Source: Candidatus Levybacteria bacterium RIFCSPLOWO2_02_FULL_37_18 (GTDB taxonomy: Bacteria > Patescibacteriota > Microgenomatia > Levybacterales > UBA12049). From it: 62,563 bases of DNA. The stretch lies in the NCBI GenBank assembly GCA_001784115.1, contig MFPD01000002.1:1-62563 (forward strand), written 5' to 3'. Positions 121 to 49,860 of this stretch are shown piece after piece. Positions within the stretch are counted from its first letter, which is position 1. The number at the start of each line of letters is the position of its first letter. Position numbers and translations under genes: made by a program. The notes below the pieces were generated by a model. The model saw only the letters and a program-made list of their open reading frames with translations, made no database searches and was not told the origin of the DNA.

Positions 121-320
121 ACTATAAGATTAAAAGAAAAAGCGTCATGAGTGGAGTCACGATCCACGATCAGAAATGAACGTTGAGAGCCAAAATACTC
201 TACGGAAGTCAACCGTAAAATTCAACAGACGATGTCACCGCGAGGTAGAGTCGCCACCAAGAGGTTCAAGAAGCAATTTTTGAACAAAAAGGATGGGACC
301 GCGGGAGGTCCTTTTTTGTT

Positions 321-448
321 ACCTCTCGTTCCTTACACATTTCTGTCATTGCGAGGTCGCCTGAGGTGACCGAAGCAATCTCACAAGATTACTTCGTCGC
401 TTCGCTCCTCGTAATGACGGTAAATAGTAACGAACGGGAGGTTTTTTG
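321..448 (+). terminator. T-box intrinsic terminator with enlarged loop
   Basis: ACCTCTCGTTC (321-331) pairs with GAACGGGAGGT (432-442, one G-U pair), followed by a T run; mutually exclusive with the antiterminator. Confidence 0.75.
345..418. repeat. GTCAT...ATGAC palindromic element
   Basis: GTCATTGCGAGG..GAAGCAATC..GATTACTTCG..CTCGTAATGAC; same family as 6868-6966 and 31965-32053. Confidence 0.85.
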
Positions 449-462
449 TTGAGCGAAGAAGG

Positions 463-2778: not shown

Positions 2779-4050
2779 ATGAACTTAATAGATATCCAGA
2801 AATTAGCAAAAACAGATAAAAAAAGCGCAGAAGAAAAACTGCTTGTATTAACTCGGGAAATTTTTCCACAGCTTTCCATTCAGAAAATTTTAATAGATCA
2901 AAAATCATACTCACTTAATTCTGTTTTTGGTTTTATTACTATTGAGAGAAAAGAATACTTTTTTAAATTCCACAGCGAAGAAGGTGAGGAAAAAACCCTT
3001 AAAGAATATTACAACTCAGAGCTTTTATCAAAAAATGGCTTCCCTACTCTATTGCCTGTTTATAAATCAACAAAACCGGGAAAGCAATTTTTAATCTATA
3101 AAAAAATTTCTGACCCAAATGTTTTTGACGTATTAGATAGATTAGAAAAAACATATCTTAAAAATAAAACCTATGATCAAAAACTCAAAACAAAACTAAT
3201 AAAAACAGAAGAATCATTTGATAAACAAATAATCAAAAAATCTTTGCAAACATTAAAAACAGTTCCAGCGAAAAAAGTTGCAAAAGAAGAAATCAATCAG
3301 CTTTTCTATAACAGATTGGTTTCAGATATTACTACTCCCCGACTTGATTTGTTTTATAAAAACAAGAGCATGGGGCTTCCAAATGGAACAATACTTTCTT
3401 TTGAGGATTTGAAAAGATTACATTGGAATATAGATGGTGTATTATATAAAAAAACTATAGATGAACTTATTATAGAAGCAAAACGTCTTCTTAATCCCCT
3501 ACGGCTTACAAGATATCCTGTTATTACCGGTCATGGTGATGACCACAACGGAAATAAATTTTTCACAAAAAAAGGCTTTGTGTATTTTGATCATGCATTT
3601 GCCGGAGAAAATCAATATGCTCTTTTAACATTTATAAAGACAACATTTCACGATTGCCTGGCACATCCCCTATGGCTTTATGATCCAAAAGATTTTAATA
3701 TTGAGTTGTATAATACAATTAAAAAAAATGTGATTGAAATTGAAACAAATTTTAATTGGATTTCATGGGCTCCAGTTAGGGAAGAATTATTATGGATAAA
3801 AATAAAACAACTCTGGGTTCCGTTAATTAAAAAATTAAAATCGAAAAATCTGTTAGAAAAAGAGTGGGAAATATTCATAAGAAGCGCTCTTTTTACCTGT
3901 CCGTTTCTTGTATATAATCTTATTGATGAAAAAAGAATTTCTCCTCTGCATTCATTGTTTGCATTATCACAATGTGTGGTTGTCGGATCAAAATCAAAAA
4001 ACGGACCAATGGAAAAATATTTTGAGTATATGAAAGAGATGCTGAACTAA
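2779..4050 (+). CDS. APH/choline-kinase-like phosphotransferase-fold protein
   Basis: YFFKF Lys strand, HGDDHNGN Brenner-like motif, FDHAFAG Mg-binding motif; start moved to ATG 2779 because the upstream part of the ORF is repeat. Confidence 0.65.
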   Translation: MNLIDIQKLAKTDKKSAEEKLLVLTREIFPQLSIQKILIDQKSYSLNSVFGFITIERKEYFFKFHSEEGEEKTLKEYYNSELLSKNGFPTLLPVYKSTKPGKQFLIYKKISDPNVFDVLDRLEKTYLKNKTYDQKLKTKLIKTEESFDKQIIKKSLQTLKTVPAKKVAKEEINQLFYNRLVSDITTPRLDLFYKNKSMGLPNGTILSFEDLKRLHWNIDGVLYKKTIDELIIEAKRLLNPLRLTRYPVITGHGDDHNGNKFFTKKGFVYFDHAFAGENQYALLTFIKTTFHDCLAHPLWLYDPKDFNIELYNTIKKNVIEIETNFNWISWAPVREELLWIKIKQLWVPLIKKLKSKNLLEKEWEIFIRSALFTCPFLVYNLIDEKRISPLHSLFALSQCVVVGSKSKNGPMEKYFEYMKEMLN

Positions 4051-4073
4051 ATTCAGCATGACAAAGAAAAACT

Positions 4074-4805
4074 ATGATTACAATAATCGACTACGGTCTG
4101 GGAAACCTTACCAGCGTTAAAAATGCCTTGGATAAACTTGGAATTAATAATCAGATTTCCGCAGACTTATCTATTCTAGAAAAATCAGATGCTCTTATTT
4201 TACCAGGTGTCGGTGCAGCTAAAGCAGGAATGCAAAATTTAAAAAAGAAAAAAATCGATCAGGAAATTATTGCACATGTAAAAAAGGGGAAACCATTTCT
4301 AGGGGTATGTCTTGGTATGCAGTTGTTAATGAGTTTTTCGAAAGAAGGAAACGTAGAATGTCTTAATATAATTCCGGGAAGAGTCGTCATTCTGGGGATG
4401 ACTCAGGGCGAAGCGTGGAGGAGGACTCCAGAATCAAAAATAAGCGATTCTGGGCAGAAAACTCAGCTCTCACAAGCCCCGCTGAACGGGGCAAGCCAGA
4501 ATGTGACGGATTACGATTTTAAGGTACCACAAATTGGTTGGAACAACGTAGAAATTCAGAATTCAGAATTCAGAATTCAGAATTCTCTTTTTAAGAATAT
4601 CCCTGATAAGAGTTTTTTTTATTTTGTGCACTCATACTACTGTGAACCGGAGGATAAATCTGTAATTGCAGGAATAACAGAATATGGTATTGAGTTTTGT
4701 TCTGTATTGCAAAAAGAGAATGTTTGGGGAGCGCAATTCCATCCTGAAAAAAGCTCTGATGCCGGCTTACAGATGTTAAAGAACTTCTCAAAAATATGTA
4801 CTTAA
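4074..4805 (+). CDS. hisH: imidazole glycerol phosphate synthase glutaminase subunit, with two in-frame inserts
   Basis: PGVG, GVCLGMQ (catalytic Cys), YFVHSY, QFHPE. Confidence 0.95.
   Translation: MITIIDYGLGNLTSVKNALDKLGINNQISADLSILEKSDALILPGVGAAKAGMQNLKKKKIDQEIIAHVKKGKPFLGVCLGMQLLMSFSKEGNVECLNIIPGRVVILGMTQGEAWRRTPESKISDSGQKTQLSQAPLNGASQNVTDYDFKVPQIGWNNVEIQNSEFRIQNSLFKNIPDKSFFYFVHSYYCEPEDKSVIAGITEYGIEFCSVLQKENVWGAQFHPEKSSDAGLQMLKNFSKICT
4386..4507. repeat. palindromic element inserted in frame in hisH
   Basis: GTCATTCTGG..CCAGAATC..GATTCTGG..CCAGAATGTGAC; encodes about 40 extra aa (ILGMTQGEAW...SQNVT). Confidence 0.85.
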
Positions 4806-40108: not shown

Positions 40109-40429
40109 ATGGACAAAAAACAAACTGAATTAAACCCAAAGCTCAAAGAAATTTATGAGCGGGTGATGAGCACAAAAATTTCTTCTCCTGCTCAAAAACC
40201 ATCTGCACCAACCCAACCTCAACCAGCTTCGAATGAAGTTCATACTCCTCAGCTTACTTCAATTGCAGTTAACCCTTTTTCTTCACCCATAAAATCCCCA
40301 ATAAAAAGGCAGGTAAAAAACCCGCCGCAGTTTGTACTGATAATAACCGGCGTTATTTTTTTTCTCGCTTATGCCTTTTTTTGGGTTCGATTTTTTAACC
40401 TCAAGCTTCCTTTTAATCTTCCGTTCTAG
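40109..40429 (+). CDS. small protein with C-terminal TM helix
   Basis: ORF with a Pro-rich middle and a hydrophobic C-terminus. Confidence 0.65.
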   Translation: MDKKQTELNPKLKEIYERVMSTKISSPAQKPSAPTQPQPASNEVHTPQLTSIAVNPFSSPIKSPIKRQVKNPPQFVLIITGVIFFLAYAFFWVRFFNLKLPFNLPF

Positions 40430-42176
40430 AAGAAAGTCTTTGAAGGACTTGTAAGGGAGTTAATAATTCAGATTCACTCTTTGTACGTTCTTTCCATTCT
40501 ATTTTTTCTTCTGTTTTTGAACTTATGACTAACCGTATTGGAATTCCAATCAAGTCAGCATCCGCAAACTTTTCTCCTGCCGACACATTCCCCCGATCAT
40601 CCCAAAGAACTTCAACTCCTTCCTCCTGCAATTTCTTATAAACTTCCTCCGCAATCTCCCTCACCTCGGAGGTGGCCCGCTTCGCCGAAGCTCCAGCGAG
40701 GCGAGCCGAATGGACTCCTCCGAGGTGGATTAGATGAACCTGAAAAGGCGCCACCGCTTCCGGCCACACAATTCCTTTATCATCATGGTAAACTTCTACA
40801 ATTGTGGCCATAGTTCTTGCTAAACCAATTCCATAACATCCCATGTAGTAAGGCTTGGCTTTGCCTTTTTCATCCACAAAATTCGCATCATGCATTTTGG
40901 CAGAATAATGAAATCCCAGTTGGAAAATATTACCCACTTCAATTCCTTTTTTAGCAAAAAAAGGCTTTCCCTCTAACGAAAGATATCCTTCTTTAGCAAG
41001 AGCAATATCTCCTTCCAAATCTGAGGCATAATCCCGGTCAATATTCATATTAAGACGATCCTTGTGCTTTTTATTGGCTCCGCCATAGGCATTTTTAATG
41101 GTACGAAGAGACGTATCTGCCACTACCACCAGTTTGACGTCTTTTTCGATAATTTCTTTAATACCGACCGGAGAAATAAAACCAGGTTCGCTGTTGATTT
41201 TTTGGCGAATTTCTTCGTCTGTCCCGTGACGTAGTTGATAAGCTTTTACCAAATGCATTAGCTTAATTTCGTTTACCTCATAATCGCCCCTGATAATAGC
41301 CAAGATAAATCGTCCTTTTTCATCTACAAATAACACATCTTTAATCTGCTGCCATAACGGCAACCCATGAAGCTTAACTCCGTCTTCCATGGTAGTTCCC
41401 CGAACGGCCTCTACTTCCTGCACTGGTTTTTCTGCTTCACCCACATTTTTTTGGTCTCTTTGAAATTTAGCTACTTCTTCGTGCGCGGCATATGAACCAT
41501 CTTTTGTGGTGAAGAACTTGGACTCTCCTGCTTCGGACTCTACCACAAACTCATGACAATATTCTCCTCCAATATAGCCATTATCTGATTCAACAACGAT
41601 CGTTTTGAGTCCTAATCGATCAAAGATCCTGGTGTATATCTCCCACATACTCTGGTATTCCTTTTTAAATTCTTCCTCTGTTGCGTGAAAGGAATACGCG
41701 TCTTTCATGACAAATTCCCGAAGCCTTAAAAGTCCTCCGCGAGTTCGCATTTCGTCTCGAAACTTTGATGAGAATTGATAAAGATTAAACGGCAAGTCTT
41801 TATAACTTATCTGGAATTTGCGAACCAAATCAACCAGCATTTCTTCTGCGGTACCGCCTAAAACAAATTCAAACTTATTCCTGTCTTTGATTGTCATAAG
41901 TTCAAATCCTACCGAACTTGTCCTGTTGGTTTCTTCCCACAAATATTTCGGATGCAAAATAGGAGTCACAACTTCCTGAGCACCCGCTTTATCCATTCCT
42001 TCTTTGGTGATTTTTTTGATTTTGTCGTGCACCCGAATTCCCAGAGGCAAAAGATAATACCGTCCGGCTGTACTTTCCCGAATAAACCCGGCCCGATACA
42101 ACAACGTATGAGAGACAAGTATTGCATCTTTTGGAGTATCTTTTATAGTCTTACCAAATAATTTTGAATAACGCAT
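40413..42176 (-). CDS. proS: prolyl-tRNA synthetase (bacterial type, with editing domain)
   Basis: RDEMRTRGGLLRLREFVMKDAYSF, IEVGNIFQLG, GCYGIG, FADADLIGIP. Confidence 0.96.
   Translation of the reverse strand: MRYSKLFGKTIKDTPKDAILVSHTLLYRAGFIRESTAGRYYLLPLGIRVHDKIKKITKEGMDKAGAQEVVTPILHPKYLWEETNRTSSVGFELMTIKDRNKFEFVLGGTAEEMLVDLVRKFQISYKDLPFNLYQFSSKFRDEMRTRGGLLRLREFVMKDAYSFHATEEEFKKEYQSMWEIYTRIFDRLGLKTIVVESDNGYIGGEYCHEFVVESEAGESKFFTTKDGSYAAHEEVAKFQRDQKNVGEAEKPVQEVEAVRGTTMEDGVKLHGLPLWQQIKDVLFVDEKGRFILAIIRGDYEVNEIKLMHLVKAYQLRHGTDEEIRQKINSEPGFISPVGIKEIIEKDVKLVVVADTSLRTIKNAYGGANKKHKDRLNMNIDRDYASDLEGDIALAKEGYLSLEGKPFFAKKGIEVGNIFQLGFHYSAKMHDANFVDEKGKAKPYYMGCYGIGLARTMATIVEVYHDDKGIVWPEAVAPFQVHLIHLGGVHSARLAGASAKRATSEVREIAEEVYKKLQEEGVEVLWDDRGNVSAGEKFADADLIGIPIRLVISSKTEEKIEWKERTKSESELLTPLQVLQRLSSRTED
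40662..40728. repeat. composite palindromic element in frame in proS
   Basis: CACCTCGGAGGTG-[GCTTCGCCGAAGCTCCAGCGAGGCGAGC]-GACTCCTCCGAGGTG; encodes HSARLAGASAKRATSEV. Confidence 0.8.
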
Positions 42177-42222
42177 AATTCTTCCTCTCATCCTGAACTT
42201 GTTTCAAGATGATATTGTCATG

Positions 42223-43248
42223 TTAGTATAGCACACATGAAATCAAGTCTTTTGGGTCTTGAGTAACAGGTGTAAGATTTAACTCCTTGCCGATATCGTA
42301 TTCTTCCGCAAGTTCGTAAGTGAGCCTAAGTGCTGAATAATCTTCAAGCGCAATACCAACCGAATCAAAAATAGTTATTTCATTTTTATTCTCTCTGCCT
42401 TTTTTTACCTCTCTAACTAGCTCATGCAGCTCCGCATGAACGAATTTTTTGGCGTCTTTTCTGGTGAGTCTTTGGATTTCTCCTTCAATAAAAGATTGAT
42501 CAAAATATTCAACAGTTATTCGACTGCGTGACAGAATACTAAGCTCCAGTTCGGTTTTTCCTACTGTATCTCCTCCAAGAGCGTTAATATGAACCCCAGA
42601 AGCAATCCAATCATTTTTAATGACAACAACTTGAGCTTTGTTTGCCGTGCAAACGGTAATAATATCTGCTCCTTCAAAAGCTTCCTCAGCATTTTTACAA
42701 CGAACAAGTTTGAACTGGTGATTGGACAAATTCTTTTCAAATTTATCCATAGCGTGAGTATCAATATCAAAAAAGCGAACTTCTTTAATATCCCGAATAA
42801 GTTGTAAAGCCAGCACCTGAAACTCACTTTGGCTACCTGTGCCAATAATTACAAGAGTTCGTGAATCTTTCCGCGCCATAAAATCTGTTGCTAAAGCGCT
42901 CGTTGCAGCAGTTCGAAGTGCAGTAAGTATGGTCATTTCAGAAAACAGCAAAGGATACCCCGTATCAATTCTCGATAACTGTCCAGTAGCTACAACTGTC
43001 GATAAACCAATGAGTGGATTTTTTGGATGGCAATTTACATATTTAAACGAATAATATTGTTTGTTATCACAAATCGGCATAAGTTCCAAAACACCACCAT
43101 CAACATGTATCGCTGGCCTGGGCATTTTGGTAAATGAATCCCAACGAATAAAATCTTGTTTAAGAACTTCTATTAAATCTCTCATGAAATTTTCAAATCC
43201 ATGACGATTTATTATTTCTGATAATGCTTCAACAGTTATTATTTTCAT
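42223..43248 (-). CDS. ocd: ornithine cyclodeaminase
   Basis: ELMP, FKYVNCHPKNP, LTALRTAATSA, GTGSQ, GGDTVGKTEL, DSVGIALED. Confidence 0.88.
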   Translation of the reverse strand: MKIITVEALSEIINRHGFENFMRDLIEVLKQDFIRWDSFTKMPRPAIHVDGGVLELMPICDNKQYYSFKYVNCHPKNPLIGLSTVVATGQLSRIDTGYPLLFSEMTILTALRTAATSALATDFMARKDSRTLVIIGTGSQSEFQVLALQLIRDIKEVRFFDIDTHAMDKFEKNLSNHQFKLVRCKNAEEAFEGADIITVCTANKAQVVVIKNDWIASGVHINALGGDTVGKTELELSILSRSRITVEYFDQSFIEGEIQRLTRKDAKKFVHAELHELVREVKKGRENKNEITIFDSVGIALEDYSALRLTYELAEEYDIGKELNLTPVTQDPKDLISCVLY

Positions 43249-43291
43249 AAATTTAGCCTTACATTCCAAGGGTGTAAACGTAAGAGTTTAC

Positions 43292-43566
43292 AAAAAAACC
43301 CTTGCAAACCACCAAGCCATTATGTGACTTAGAAATTTACAAGGGCGAAATTCTGAATTCTAGATTCTCGCTGTACCACCTTGCTTTTATTCTCTTTTCT
43401 ATAAAAAATGCTCGCCTTCGCGAGCACAATCAACAAAAGAGAACCTCTTTCTTGACGTGCTCTATTTTTTCAAACGATTCACGCTACTGTCTTTTACGGT
43501 TTCGTCTCCGTACTACTCATCGTAGTCTGCAACTCGTTTGGCGGGAAACCAAACTAATAACGCTTT
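43292..43566 (-). ncRNA. T-box riboswitch, Pro-specific, ultrashort Stem I, transcriptional
   Basis: Minus strand: AAGCGTTATTA-GTTTGG-TTTCCCG-CCAAAC-GA (CCC at 43545-43543); TACGG..ACCGTAAAA; CAAGG-TGGTACA-GCGAGA..TTTCGC-CCTTG antiterminator; terminator CCCTTGTAAA/TTTGCAAGGG plus T7; upstream of ocd-proS. Confidence 0.88.
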
Positions 43567-43654
43567 ATTATTCTAATATAGCATACAAACATTTCTCTAA
43601 TACTACATATAACACGCAGCAGTCTGTCTACAATTGGTATTGCCATATGTAGGA

Positions 43655-48637: not shown

Positions 48638-49860
48638 GGCCGAAATAGTTTTGAAACGTCTTTAAATGTAATGAGCAAAATAAGAGTAAGCAGCACAATC
48701 ATGCCAATTTGATGAATAAACCCCTCTATTCTTTGATTTACTTTTTTGCCAGTTATTCCTTCGATTGCAATAAAAAACAACCGCCCGCCGTCCAAAGCCG
48801 GAATGGGTAGAATATTAAATACAGCCAAAGACATGGACAAAACTCCGGCTAAATTCAAAACTCCTAATATTCTTTCTTTTACATCCGGAATTTGCACAAT
48901 CGTGCCAACCAACGAATAGATTCCAACCGGCCCTGCAACTCCTTCGGAAACCGGTGCCACTGTTTTTCTTTGTAAAGATACGGCAATGAGCCGCTTTAAG
49001 ATTTGAAAATTATATCCCATTAGATTTATCGGATGGACAATCCCGCTTAACAATTTTTGGCCTGGAGTTTTGTAATCTAAAACAGCTGTGATAGCGCCAA
49101 AAAACCCAATTCCCATTGCTCCTTCACCTTTTGGCGGATTGACCCGGGGGACTAACGCTTCCCGAGTTTCTTTTTGGGTTTTTATATCTTCAAATACAAT
49201 TGTAATTTCCTTGCCTTTGTTTTTATTGACAATAGCAACAAACTGCTTTAAATCAGTTACCTGTATTTCGTTGATTTTTTTAATTTTTGAAAGCGGAGCT
49301 AAACCTGCTTTTTGAGCCGGAGAATTTTTGGAAACACTGCTTACGACCAGTTCTGTCTTGTTAGTTTGAATAACACCTAAAAACGTATAATCTCCAAGTA
49401 ATGGAATTTCTGTTTTAAAATTTGAAATAAATAAAAATACATAGAATATCACTGCTGCTAATACCGCGTTCATAATAACTCCGGCCACAACAACCGCTAA
49501 TTTCTGAGGAGCAGACCGCGCATAAAACGCCCTCCTAACATCAGTATTAGGTATAGAGTATTGAGTATTAAGTATTTTTTTCTTTTTGCCTGATACTTTA
49601 TACTTGCTACTTGATACTGGCAGGCGGAGCCTGCCGGCTCCTGCTTCGTCTTCGCCGTATAACTTTACAAATCCTCCAATTGGGAGCCAATTTATGGAAT
49701 ATTCCGTCTCGCCTTTTTTTATAGAAAATGCTTTCGGTGGAAACCCAAATCCAAATTCTTCAACTTTAATTCCTAATTTTTTGGCAACCAAAAAATGCCC
49801 TAACTCATGGATGAGAACTAATACTGAAAGTATGAGTAGGAAAAGTAAAGCTGTTAACAT
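48634..49860 (-). CDS. rseP: RseP-like M50 intramembrane protease with PDZ domain and repeat-derived insert
   Basis: HELGH, GFGFPP, LPIGGFV, NILPIPALDGG. Confidence 0.92.
   Translation of the reverse strand: MLTALLFLLILSVLVLIHELGHFLVAKKLGIKVEEFGFGFPPKAFSIKKGETEYSINWLPIGGFVKLYGEDEAGAGRLRLPVSSSKYKVSGKKKKILNTQYSIPNTDVRRAFYARSAPQKLAVVVAGVIMNAVLAAVIFYVFLFISNFKTEIPLLGDYTFLGVIQTNKTELVVSSVSKNSPAQKAGLAPLSKIKKINEIQVTDLKQFVAIVNKNKGKEITIVFEDIKTQKETREALVPRVNPPKGEGAMGIGFFGAITAVLDYKTPGQKLLSGIVHPINLMGYNFQILKRLIAVSLQRKTVAPVSEGVAGPVGIYSLVGTIVQIPDVKERILGVLNLAGVLSMSLAVFNILPIPALDGGRLFFIAIEGITGKKVNQRIEGFIHQIGMIVLLTLILLITFKDVSKLFRP

Follow-up and report, generated by a model that had tools for sequence, protein, structure and literature searches.

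A compact T-box leader, predicted to respond to tRNA-Pro, ahead of an ornithine cyclodeaminase-proS operon of a Levybacteria genome and its relatives in the Candidate Phyla Radiation

The contig MFPD01000002.1 of Candidatus Levybacteria bacterium RIFCSPLOWO2_02_FULL_37_18 (assembly GCA_001784115.1), analysed over positions 1 to 62,563 and called the window below, carries a leader on its minus strand at 43566-43292, ahead of the genes for ornithine cyclodeaminase (OCD) and prolyl-tRNA synthetase (proS). It was concluded, with a probability of about 0.85, that this leader is a T-box that responds to tRNA-Pro and controls the OCD-proS operon through transcription attenuation. This conclusion is carried by the anatomy of the leader, by its conservation and covariation, by the agreement of the codon with the discriminator and the tRNA, and by a proline regulon found downstream of its relatives. 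A Pro T-box had been proposed from the letters of the DNA alone (the original prediction), and this was borne out by CCN loops, UGGU discriminators, A73 in the tRNA-Pro genes of relatives and proline genes downstream. The same prediction had presented the leader as a second example of its architecture, which is too narrow, as the leader belongs to a large family found across Microgenomates-type bacteria of the Candidate Phyla Radiation (CPR). The elements of the leader, together with the promoter element before it and the His leader of the window, are the following.

43575 to 43583, minus strand: extended -10-like element TGCTATATT, from sequence reading
43555 to 43566, minus strand: basal 5' strand of Stem I, AAAGCGUUAUUA, with a K-turn-like internal loop
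43536 to 43554, minus strand: Stem I hairpin GUUUGG-UUUCCCG-CCAAAC, 6 bp with a 7-nt apical loop
43545-43543, minus strand: specifier CCC (loop positions 4-6), the next purine being G at 43542
43531 to 43535, minus strand: GAGUU, the conserved GA after Stem I and the 3' strand of the basal helix
43512 to 43526, minus strand: mini Stem II ACUAC-GAUGA-GUAGU, 5 bp with a GAURA pentaloop, directly abutting Stem IIA
43492 to 43511, minus strand: Stem IIA ACGG-AGACGAAA-CCGU plus AAAA, with the F-box-like CCGUAAAA
43455 to 43484, minus strand: extra helix of GCUGU type, GCGUG ... GAG-CACGU, interrupted by an internal loop, its inner helix capped by GAAA
43390 to 43443, minus strand: Stem III, UUCUCUUUUG ... 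AGAAAAGAGAA, a predicted fold with AAAA on its 3' side
43402 to 43427, minus strand: internal terminator-like hairpin GUGCUCGC-GAAG-GCGAGCAU with a U-run, nested in Stem III, from a terminator scan
43383-43340, minus strand: antiterminator CAAGG-UGGUACA-GCGA...UCGC-CCUUG
43292 to 43345, minus strand: intrinsic terminator, a two-tier hairpin CCCUUGUAAAUU...GGUUUGCAAGGG with U7, about -25 kcal/mol
138-460, plus strand: His leader of the window, ahead of hisG through hisS

All the elements named in the original prediction were found again at their minus-strand positions when the sequence was read. They comprise the 5' signature AAGCGTTATTAGT (43565-43553), the hairpin GTTTGG-TTTCCCG-CCAAAC followed by GA (43554-43536), the element TACGG-AGACGAA-ACCGTAAAA (43512-43492), the bulge TGGTACA between CAAGG and CCTTG (43378-43372), the hairpin at 43345-43299 followed by T7 at 43298-43292, and the extended -10 TGCTATATT (43583-43575). 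The TACGG..CCGTAAAA element said to be shared with the His leader is present, and was reclassified as the Stem IIA and F-box of standard T-box anatomy. A degenerate form of the 5' signature matched the window twice, at the Pro and His leaders only, against 0.24 matches expected, and two matches were attained in 4 of 100 shuffles. The fold of the leader gave a z value of -4.85 relative to shuffles.

The predicted specificity for proline is based first on the apical loop of Stem I. Loop positions 4-6 read CCC, CCU, CCG or CCA, which are all four Pro codons, with the first two bases invariant and a purine after the codon in nearly all leaders. A CCN specifier was present in all of the approximately 35 genome leaders and in all 43 metagenome leaders (about 78 altogether). 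Its setting varies in a few of them: in L024 the CCG lies one position earlier, in the register shared with the His leaders (GU-CAC-GA), the Dojkabacteria leaders L010 and L045 have a smaller CCCA loop, and in the Woesebacteria leader L027 a small hairpin is inserted 5' of the codon, which thereby comes to lie in a side bulge, on the 3' side of it, an arrangement known from canonical and class IV Stem I. Selection through a proline gene was avoided in the metagenome search by the use of the pattern AGTTTGG-N7-CCAAACGAG-N(8-30)-ACGG, in which the loop is free. This pattern gave 68 matches, 43 of which also have the F-box, and the loop was CCN in 43 of these 43 (UUUCCCG, CAUCCUA, UUUCCUG and UACCCCG among them). 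UGGU was found in 37 of the 37 metagenome leaders whose contig includes the core. The remaining matches (about 25 of the 68) were discarded as chance occurrences, with random loops, no F-box and no core.

The first genes after these unbiased leaders were proB-like kinases (15), proC-like reductases (4), ornithine aminotransferase (4), an acetyltransferase-OCD pair (3) and OCD (2). The ornithine aminotransferase assignment was above the cut-off (TIGR01885, 503 bits), while the proB-like and proC-like names are best matches that stayed under the curated cut-offs. Judged by the genes that follow them, the leaders control a proline regulon.

The discriminator agrees with the codon. UGGU was read in every Pro leader with a readable discriminator and UGGG in both His leaders, that of the window and that of L008. 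The tRNA-Pro(GGG) genes beside OCD in L001 and L002, as well as the tRNA-Pro(CGG) gene in L061, have A73, in line with the predicted pairing of A73 with UGGU; the tRNA-His(GUG) of L008 has G-1 and C73. The claim that codon, discriminator and regulated genes change together between the two kinds of leader was thus met with a consistent pattern, CCN, UGGU and A73 for Pro versus CAC, UGGG and C73 for His. The GGG anticodon is a perfect match to the CCC of the window.

It is extremely improbable that the apical loop is something other than a specifier, either a mimic of the anticodon stem-loop bound by prolyl-tRNA synthetase (ProRS) or a site where another tRNA is read (UCC, for Ser). A 7-nt loop on a short stem does resemble an anticodon arm, and UCC occurs in most of the loops. 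ProRS, however, recognises the anticodon NGG, and the loop has the codon sense CCN, which led to the rejection of the mimic. UCC is missing from the loops UACCCCG and UUCCCAG, and the base next to it would be a pyrimidine; bacterial tRNA-Ser has G73 and would need UGGC rather than UGGU. Both UCC (Ser) and UUC (Phe) were rejected as specifiers, given that these triplets are not conserved, that UGGU fits A73 and not G73, and that the regulon is one of proline. In addition, a full T-box discriminator with UGGU lies downstream and the regulated genes are all proline genes.

Genes for the tRNAs concerned, and for a tRNA-binding protein, were noticed near some leaders. A tRNA-Pro(GGG) gene lies directly downstream of the T-box-controlled OCD, on the opposite strand, in L001 (4144-4215) and L002 (1730-1801). 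L008 contains at 3977-4470 a His-type ultrashort leader with a CAC loop, UGGG and a terminator ending near 4230, which is followed by the tRNA-His(GUG) gene (4354-4426) and then by hisG from 4461; by this order, the gene of the sensed tRNA appears to lie inside the T-box-controlled unit. A gene for a CsaA-like tRNA-binding protein, recognised by similarity, follows OCD in L008 (3529-3909), and a CsaA-like gene (NF007495, 161 bits) is the first open reading frame past a Pro leader in L088.

The spread of the family was assessed from OCD loci and with a covariance model. From the species-representative genomes, 80 OCD loci were collected by an alignment-based scan, about 59 of them from CPR; a single-protein scan of genome contigs gave 0 matches. 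The leader was found upstream of OCD, or of the acetyltransferase-OCD pair, in about 35 of the approximately 59 CPR loci by a regular expression followed by the covariance model, and in 0 of the 6 proteobacterial OCD loci searched. Its carriers are about 35 species-representative CPR genomes, mostly of Microgenomates type, and 37 metagenome contigs. A scan was run with a covariance model built from nine compact leaders, and both leaders of the window were recovered, the Pro leader with 78.7 bits (E about 1e-24) and the His leader with 28.2 bits. A third match (49717-49762, 11.4 bits, E = 0.52) was set aside as noise, with no T-box core nearby. The dedicated model matched solely upstream of CPR proline and histidine operons. 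Rfam gave no match at gathering score. Under permissive settings RF00230 reached 23.2 bits versus a gathering score of 93, with a confident alignment of the antiterminator core only, and 0 of 20 relatives were detected with it.

The helices are supported by covariation. When pieces of 21 Pro leaders were taken in a fixed register, 99.7% of the pairs were standard and 10 of 15 varied on both sides; the extraction required pairing, so that the percentage arises partly by construction, which does not apply to the many pair types seen per position. None of 500 shuffles matched the observed pairing, and slid registers collapsed. In the model alignment of 37 matches 97% of the cells pair and 14 of the 15 pairs of the 5' domain vary on both sides, statistics to be read with the caveat that the alignment was fitted to the model.

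Judged from the extended -10-like element, transcription should begin shortly 5' of AAAGCG; the promoter scan also proposed an overlapping TAGAGA-18-TAGAAT at 43599-43570. Promoters of the sigma-70 type (TTGACA/TATAAT) were read by eye at the matching relative position in L015, L020 and L046. Since these promoters sit a few bases 5' of AAAGCG, the RNA would begin at Stem I and there is no space for a long Stem I. The distance from promoter to Stem II is about 50 nt, and Stem I is a 19-nt hairpin that carries no double T-loop platform (AG bulge and distal loop).

The basal helix of Stem I is formed by AGC and by the GUU at 43533-43531. Relatives have AGC/GCU or AGCGU/ACGCU at this site, around a loop with GA opposite GA, and CGAGCUG or CGAGUUG is kept in the compact members of the family. 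All 6 pairs of the Stem I hairpin vary on both sides across the family, as do 5 of the 5 pairs of mini Stem II (ACUAC/GUAGU, CAUAC/GUAUG, AUUGC/GCAAU, CGUGC/GCACG). In the longer relatives L003 and L012 a helix is inserted between internal-loop strands GA and GGUAA, and these loops could be the usual S-turn, which they resemble. An extra hairpin between Stem I and Stem II, which is not present in the window, was observed in L003, L007, L008, L011, L012, L013, L027, L042 and L053, for example with CCUUC-AAUAAAUUC-AGGAG or UUCGGCAAACUCAGGA loops; it lies within the AGCGU/ACGCU helix and produces a multi-way junction.

Stem IIA and the F-box have the layout ACGG-N8-CCGUAAAA, and the IIA helix covaries (ACGG/CCGU, ACAG/CUGU in L033 and ACAC/GUGU in L017). 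The IIA loop pairs with the bases just 3' of CCGUAAAA better than with mismatched partners (GUCA/UGAC, GUUU/AAAC and GGAU/AUCC are examples), the observed mean being reached in 18 of 5000 permutations. This comparison of sequences supports the existence of a IIA/B pseudoknot in the family. In the window the IIB pairing has just 3 bp, ACG/CGU, with the partner at 43483-43481.

The expression platform consists of two competing structures. The antiterminator is formed by helix A1 (CAAGG/CCUUG), the 7-nt bulge UGGUACA (43378-43372), helix A2 (GCGA/UCGC) and a 19-nt loop, and when this segment was folded alone the minimum-energy structure was that same A1/bulge/A2 shape, with -11.0 kcal/mol. In helices A1 and A2 99% of the cells are paired and 3 of the 4 A2 pairs covary. 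The 5' arm of the terminator (43345-43334) contains CCUUG, the 3' strand of A1, which makes the two structures mutually exclusive. With about -11 kcal/mol for the antiterminator versus about -25 kcal/mol for the terminator, the "off" state would be the default. Wherever the discriminator of a Pro leader is intact, the leader closes with a hairpin of -16 to -39 kcal/mol (weaker in one case), followed by U6-8. The label "terminator-type" given in the original prediction is well supported at the level of structure.

The three heptamers that had been pointed out in the antiterminator loop (GAATCTA GAATTCA GAATTTC, 43367-43347) were found by reading, and Tandem Repeats Finder makes no call there. 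At the same site of the A2 loop, L007 has a five-copy array of period 7 (2005-2039, Tandem Repeats Finder score 49), whose consensus AATTAAG is, when read by eye, the heptamer unit of the window in another phase. A 95-nt insertion was observed in the A2 loop of L044. As far as the sequences tell, the A2 loop accepts insertions. The heptamers of the window look like a heptamer microsatellite inserted in that loop, and probably are not a functional feature.

The position of the terminator relative to the first gene bears on its mode of action, and the two genes of the operon are located as follows.

42223 to 43260, minus strand: OCD gene including the Shine-Dalgarno (SD) sequence AAGG at 43260-43257, with ATG at 43248 (NF005762, 438.9 bits versus a cut-off of 350)
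40413 to 42191, minus strand: proS, prolyl-tRNA synthetase, second gene of the operon (NF006625, 587.9 bits versus a cut-off of 558)

The leader might instead act on translation, like the T-boxes of classes III and IV in Actinobacteria, with the hairpin as an SD sequestrator and the U-run as a spacer. T-boxes that act on translation are marked out by a short Stem I (PMC7583486, PMC10482949). The start codon is at most 2 nt from the U-run in 18 of 34 metagenome relatives, and the 3' arm of the hairpin in such close-coupled relatives (GGCGAGG, GACGAGG, CAAGGGC) was seen by eye to contain SD-like GAGG or AAGG. In the window, however, the ATG lies 43 nt past the U7 run and has its own SD, AAGG, 8 nt 5' of the ATG and outside the hairpin. 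This spacer and the separate SD mean that the hairpin of the window cannot act by hiding the SD. A GC-rich hairpin with U6-8, the signature of an intrinsic terminator, is moreover present in every intact member. A purely translational action is very unlikely, while in the close-coupled relatives, to judge from these sequences, the hairpin could both terminate transcription and sequester the SD.

The region between the pseudoknot and the discriminator contains further conserved structure. The extra helix is the "UGU/GAG" element of the family, conserved and located after the pseudoknot; in relatives it has the form GUG-UGU-CG..CG-GAG-CAC and covaries to GCG..CGC and AUG..CAU. A purine-rich string (43453-43444) precedes Stem III, and in 24 of 26 leaders AA was read by eye directly next to helix A1, on its 5' side. 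These may correspond to the canonical purine flanks of Stem III (5'-RRRxG ... AA-3'). The internal hairpin nested in Stem III, with U5-8 and a covarying stem, was observed by eye in about 18 of the approximately 35 relatives, and might serve for pausing or as a first terminator.

This internal hairpin raises the alternative of a two-stage attenuator, in which the hairpin and U-run at 43427-43402 are a working terminator or a strong pause before the discriminator is synthesised. Either the tRNA-bound 5' decoding domain would influence the hairpin, or the hairpin would buy time for a slow capture of the tRNA. The hairpin was flagged as terminator-like by the scanner, its GC-rich stem covaries in about half of the family, and an elbow contact, which the window leader lacks, has been argued to be necessary for fast tRNA capture (PMC7583486). 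Furthermore, the discriminator has been lost from L021 (1238-1420) and L024 (2341-2500), which retain the 5' decoding domain of the Pro leaders together with the internal hairpin and its U-run, the latter almost abutting the OCD start codon. This loss could stem from a deletion or an error of assembly, or could reflect another mode of action; both are single contigs of metagenome-assembled genomes. Against the two-stage scheme, the hairpin lies within the longer Stem III helix and may be no more than the tip of that helix, it is missing from both His leaders and from about half of the family, and no alternative pairing was found that would make it dependent on tRNA. The two-stage attenuator was thus considered unlikely, although it deserves some weight.

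The leader was compared with the known T-box classes. Classes I and II have a long Stem I and act on transcription, while classes III and IV, the translational ileS leaders of Actinobacteria, have a short or intermediate Stem I with the specifier in an apical loop or a side bulge, and require Stem II (PMC10482949). The short-Stem-I model of TBDB was applied only to Actinobacteria and to sequences detected by RF00230 (PMC7778990). Class III leaders, with an ultrashort Stem I, are known for ileS of Nocardia farcinica, Mycobacterium tuberculosis and M. smegmatis, the sources being Sherwood et al. 2015 and the structures 6UFM and 6UFG, both as cited in PMC7583486 and PMC10482949.

The window leader is like class III in its short Stem I without the double T-loop platform that binds the tRNA elbow, in the specifier in the apical loop followed by a purine, in the Stem II followed directly by a Stem IIA/B-type hairpin with the F-box, and in the standard UGGN discriminator. 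It differs from class III in its loop of 7 nt versus the published 5-6 nt (PMC10482949), and in having a Stem II of 5 bp with a pentaloop instead of a long one with an S-turn and a purine string that clamps the codon-anticodon duplex. Its intrinsic terminator with U7 and a separate SD stands in place of an SD sequestrator, it has Pro and not Ile specificity, and its host belongs to the Microgenomates-type CPR and not to the Actinobacteria. Also unlike class III, the family has G-C or A-U in place of the G•U sensor pair, and in the window Stem IIA is separated from the discriminator by a further helix and a terminator-like hairpin. The class IV leader of Actinomyces odontolyticus ileS (PMC10482949) is matched by L027, with its specifier in a side bulge between two helices; the window has the apical-loop form, and its expression platform is a terminator.

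With class I (RF00230) the leader shares the competition of antiterminator and terminator, the T-box sequence, the F-box and Stem III, and with class I proline leaders a proline codon as specifier and the control of proline biosynthesis genes. Such proline-specific leaders, for proBA and proI of Bacillus subtilis, were reportedly described by Brill et al. in 2011. Unlike class I, the window has no Stem I of about 100 nt, no specifier internal loop with an S-turn, no AG bulge and no distal loop. In comparison with the class II glycine leaders of glyQS, the CCC:GGG duplex of the window leader would be equally strong, and this may explain its stub-like Stem II. The reduction of the glycine leaders is the reverse of that in the window, as glyQS leaders keep the long Stem I and the elbow platform and have the Stem II domain, including the pseudoknot, replaced by a linker. 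The window leader has the core T-box features and fits no published class: it combines class III decoding with class I output and adds further reductions. In the literature searched, a short Stem I with an apical-loop specifier was described solely for translation-controlling actinobacterial leaders and not with a terminator, and no paper linking T-boxes to CPR or Patescibacteria was found.

Several observations weigh against a tRNA-Pro-responsive attenuator in the window. The distal Stem I platform, described as indispensable to T-boxes that act on transcription but not to those that act on translation (PMC7583486), is absent. An S-turn is missing from Stem II, and the K-turn at the base of Stem I is imperfect, with UA opposite GA and with AGC/GUU, so that a canonical K-turn is not assured. 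The canonical G•U wobble at the base of A2 is the steric sensor of the aminoacyl group (PMC7583486), and the window has G-C there; across the leaders the pair is A-U in 16 and G-C in 10, and G•U was found in the His leader L008 and, by eye, in the His leader of the window. The internal terminator-like hairpin is located 5' of the discriminator, and if it were efficient as a terminator, transcription would end before the tRNA-sensing decision. The two limits on the pair statistics given above are of the same kind. Finally, RNA sequencing runs were searched for the locus and none containing the stretch was found, which bears on termination and tRNA dependence.

Among the neighbouring features, the OCD-proS order was also found in L003-L005, and the closest named relatives of the OCD protein are from Levybacteria, Gottesmanbacteria and Roizmanbacteria. 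The interval from the terminator to the OCD start contains a promoter-like TTTACA-17-TAAATT (43250-43278, minus strand); sites of this kind are at chance level, with 2 found versus 1.6 expected.

In the favoured reading, that of a tRNA-Pro-responsive T-box acting by attenuation, binding of the tRNA, sensing of its charging and termination are deduced from the sequences in the following manner. The RNA would start just 5' of AAAGCG, and the apical loop of the 6-bp hairpin would display CCC for pairing with the tRNA-Pro anticodon, GGG being the perfect match. Mini Stem II, with its 5 bp, and the pseudoknot of Stem IIA and the F-box would pack alongside the Stem I hairpin. In the bulge, UGGU would pair with the free A73-C-C-A end of an uncharged tRNA-Pro and stabilise the weak antiterminator (A1 and A2), allowing the polymerase to continue into OCD and proS. 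If the tRNA is charged or absent, the CCUUG strand of A1 would go to the stronger terminator with U7 and transcription would stop. It is also suggested, tentatively and as a possibility rather than an expectation, that the proline regulon of Microgenomates-type CPR bacteria as a whole (OCD-proS, proB-like, proC-like and ornithine aminotransferase genes) is governed by an attenuating T-box without elbow contact, S-turn or G•U pair. This would be made workable by the all-G:C CCC:GGG pairing and by a conserved Stem III hairpin and U-tract that stall, or partly stop, the polymerase until the tRNA is captured.

T-boxes are a textbook case of RNA reading RNA, and this leader and its roughly 70 relatives unite a short apical-loop decoder with an intrinsic terminator. 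If the tentative proposal is true, co-transcriptional T-boxes can do without the platform that is held to be essential to them, its place being taken by a programmed pause. Should the mechanism hold, the leader would be a compact natural tRNA sensor, with a 5' decoding domain of about 75 nt and a smallest complete relative of about 170 nt, and could help to study, or to engineer, what tRNA decoding requires at a minimum. It would further mean that the standard models (RF00230 and the class II model of TBDB, restricted to Actinobacteria) under-count T-boxes in uncultured bacteria, and that the reduced genomes of CPR bacteria tune their proline supply, including the ornithine cyclodeaminase route, by tRNA charging.

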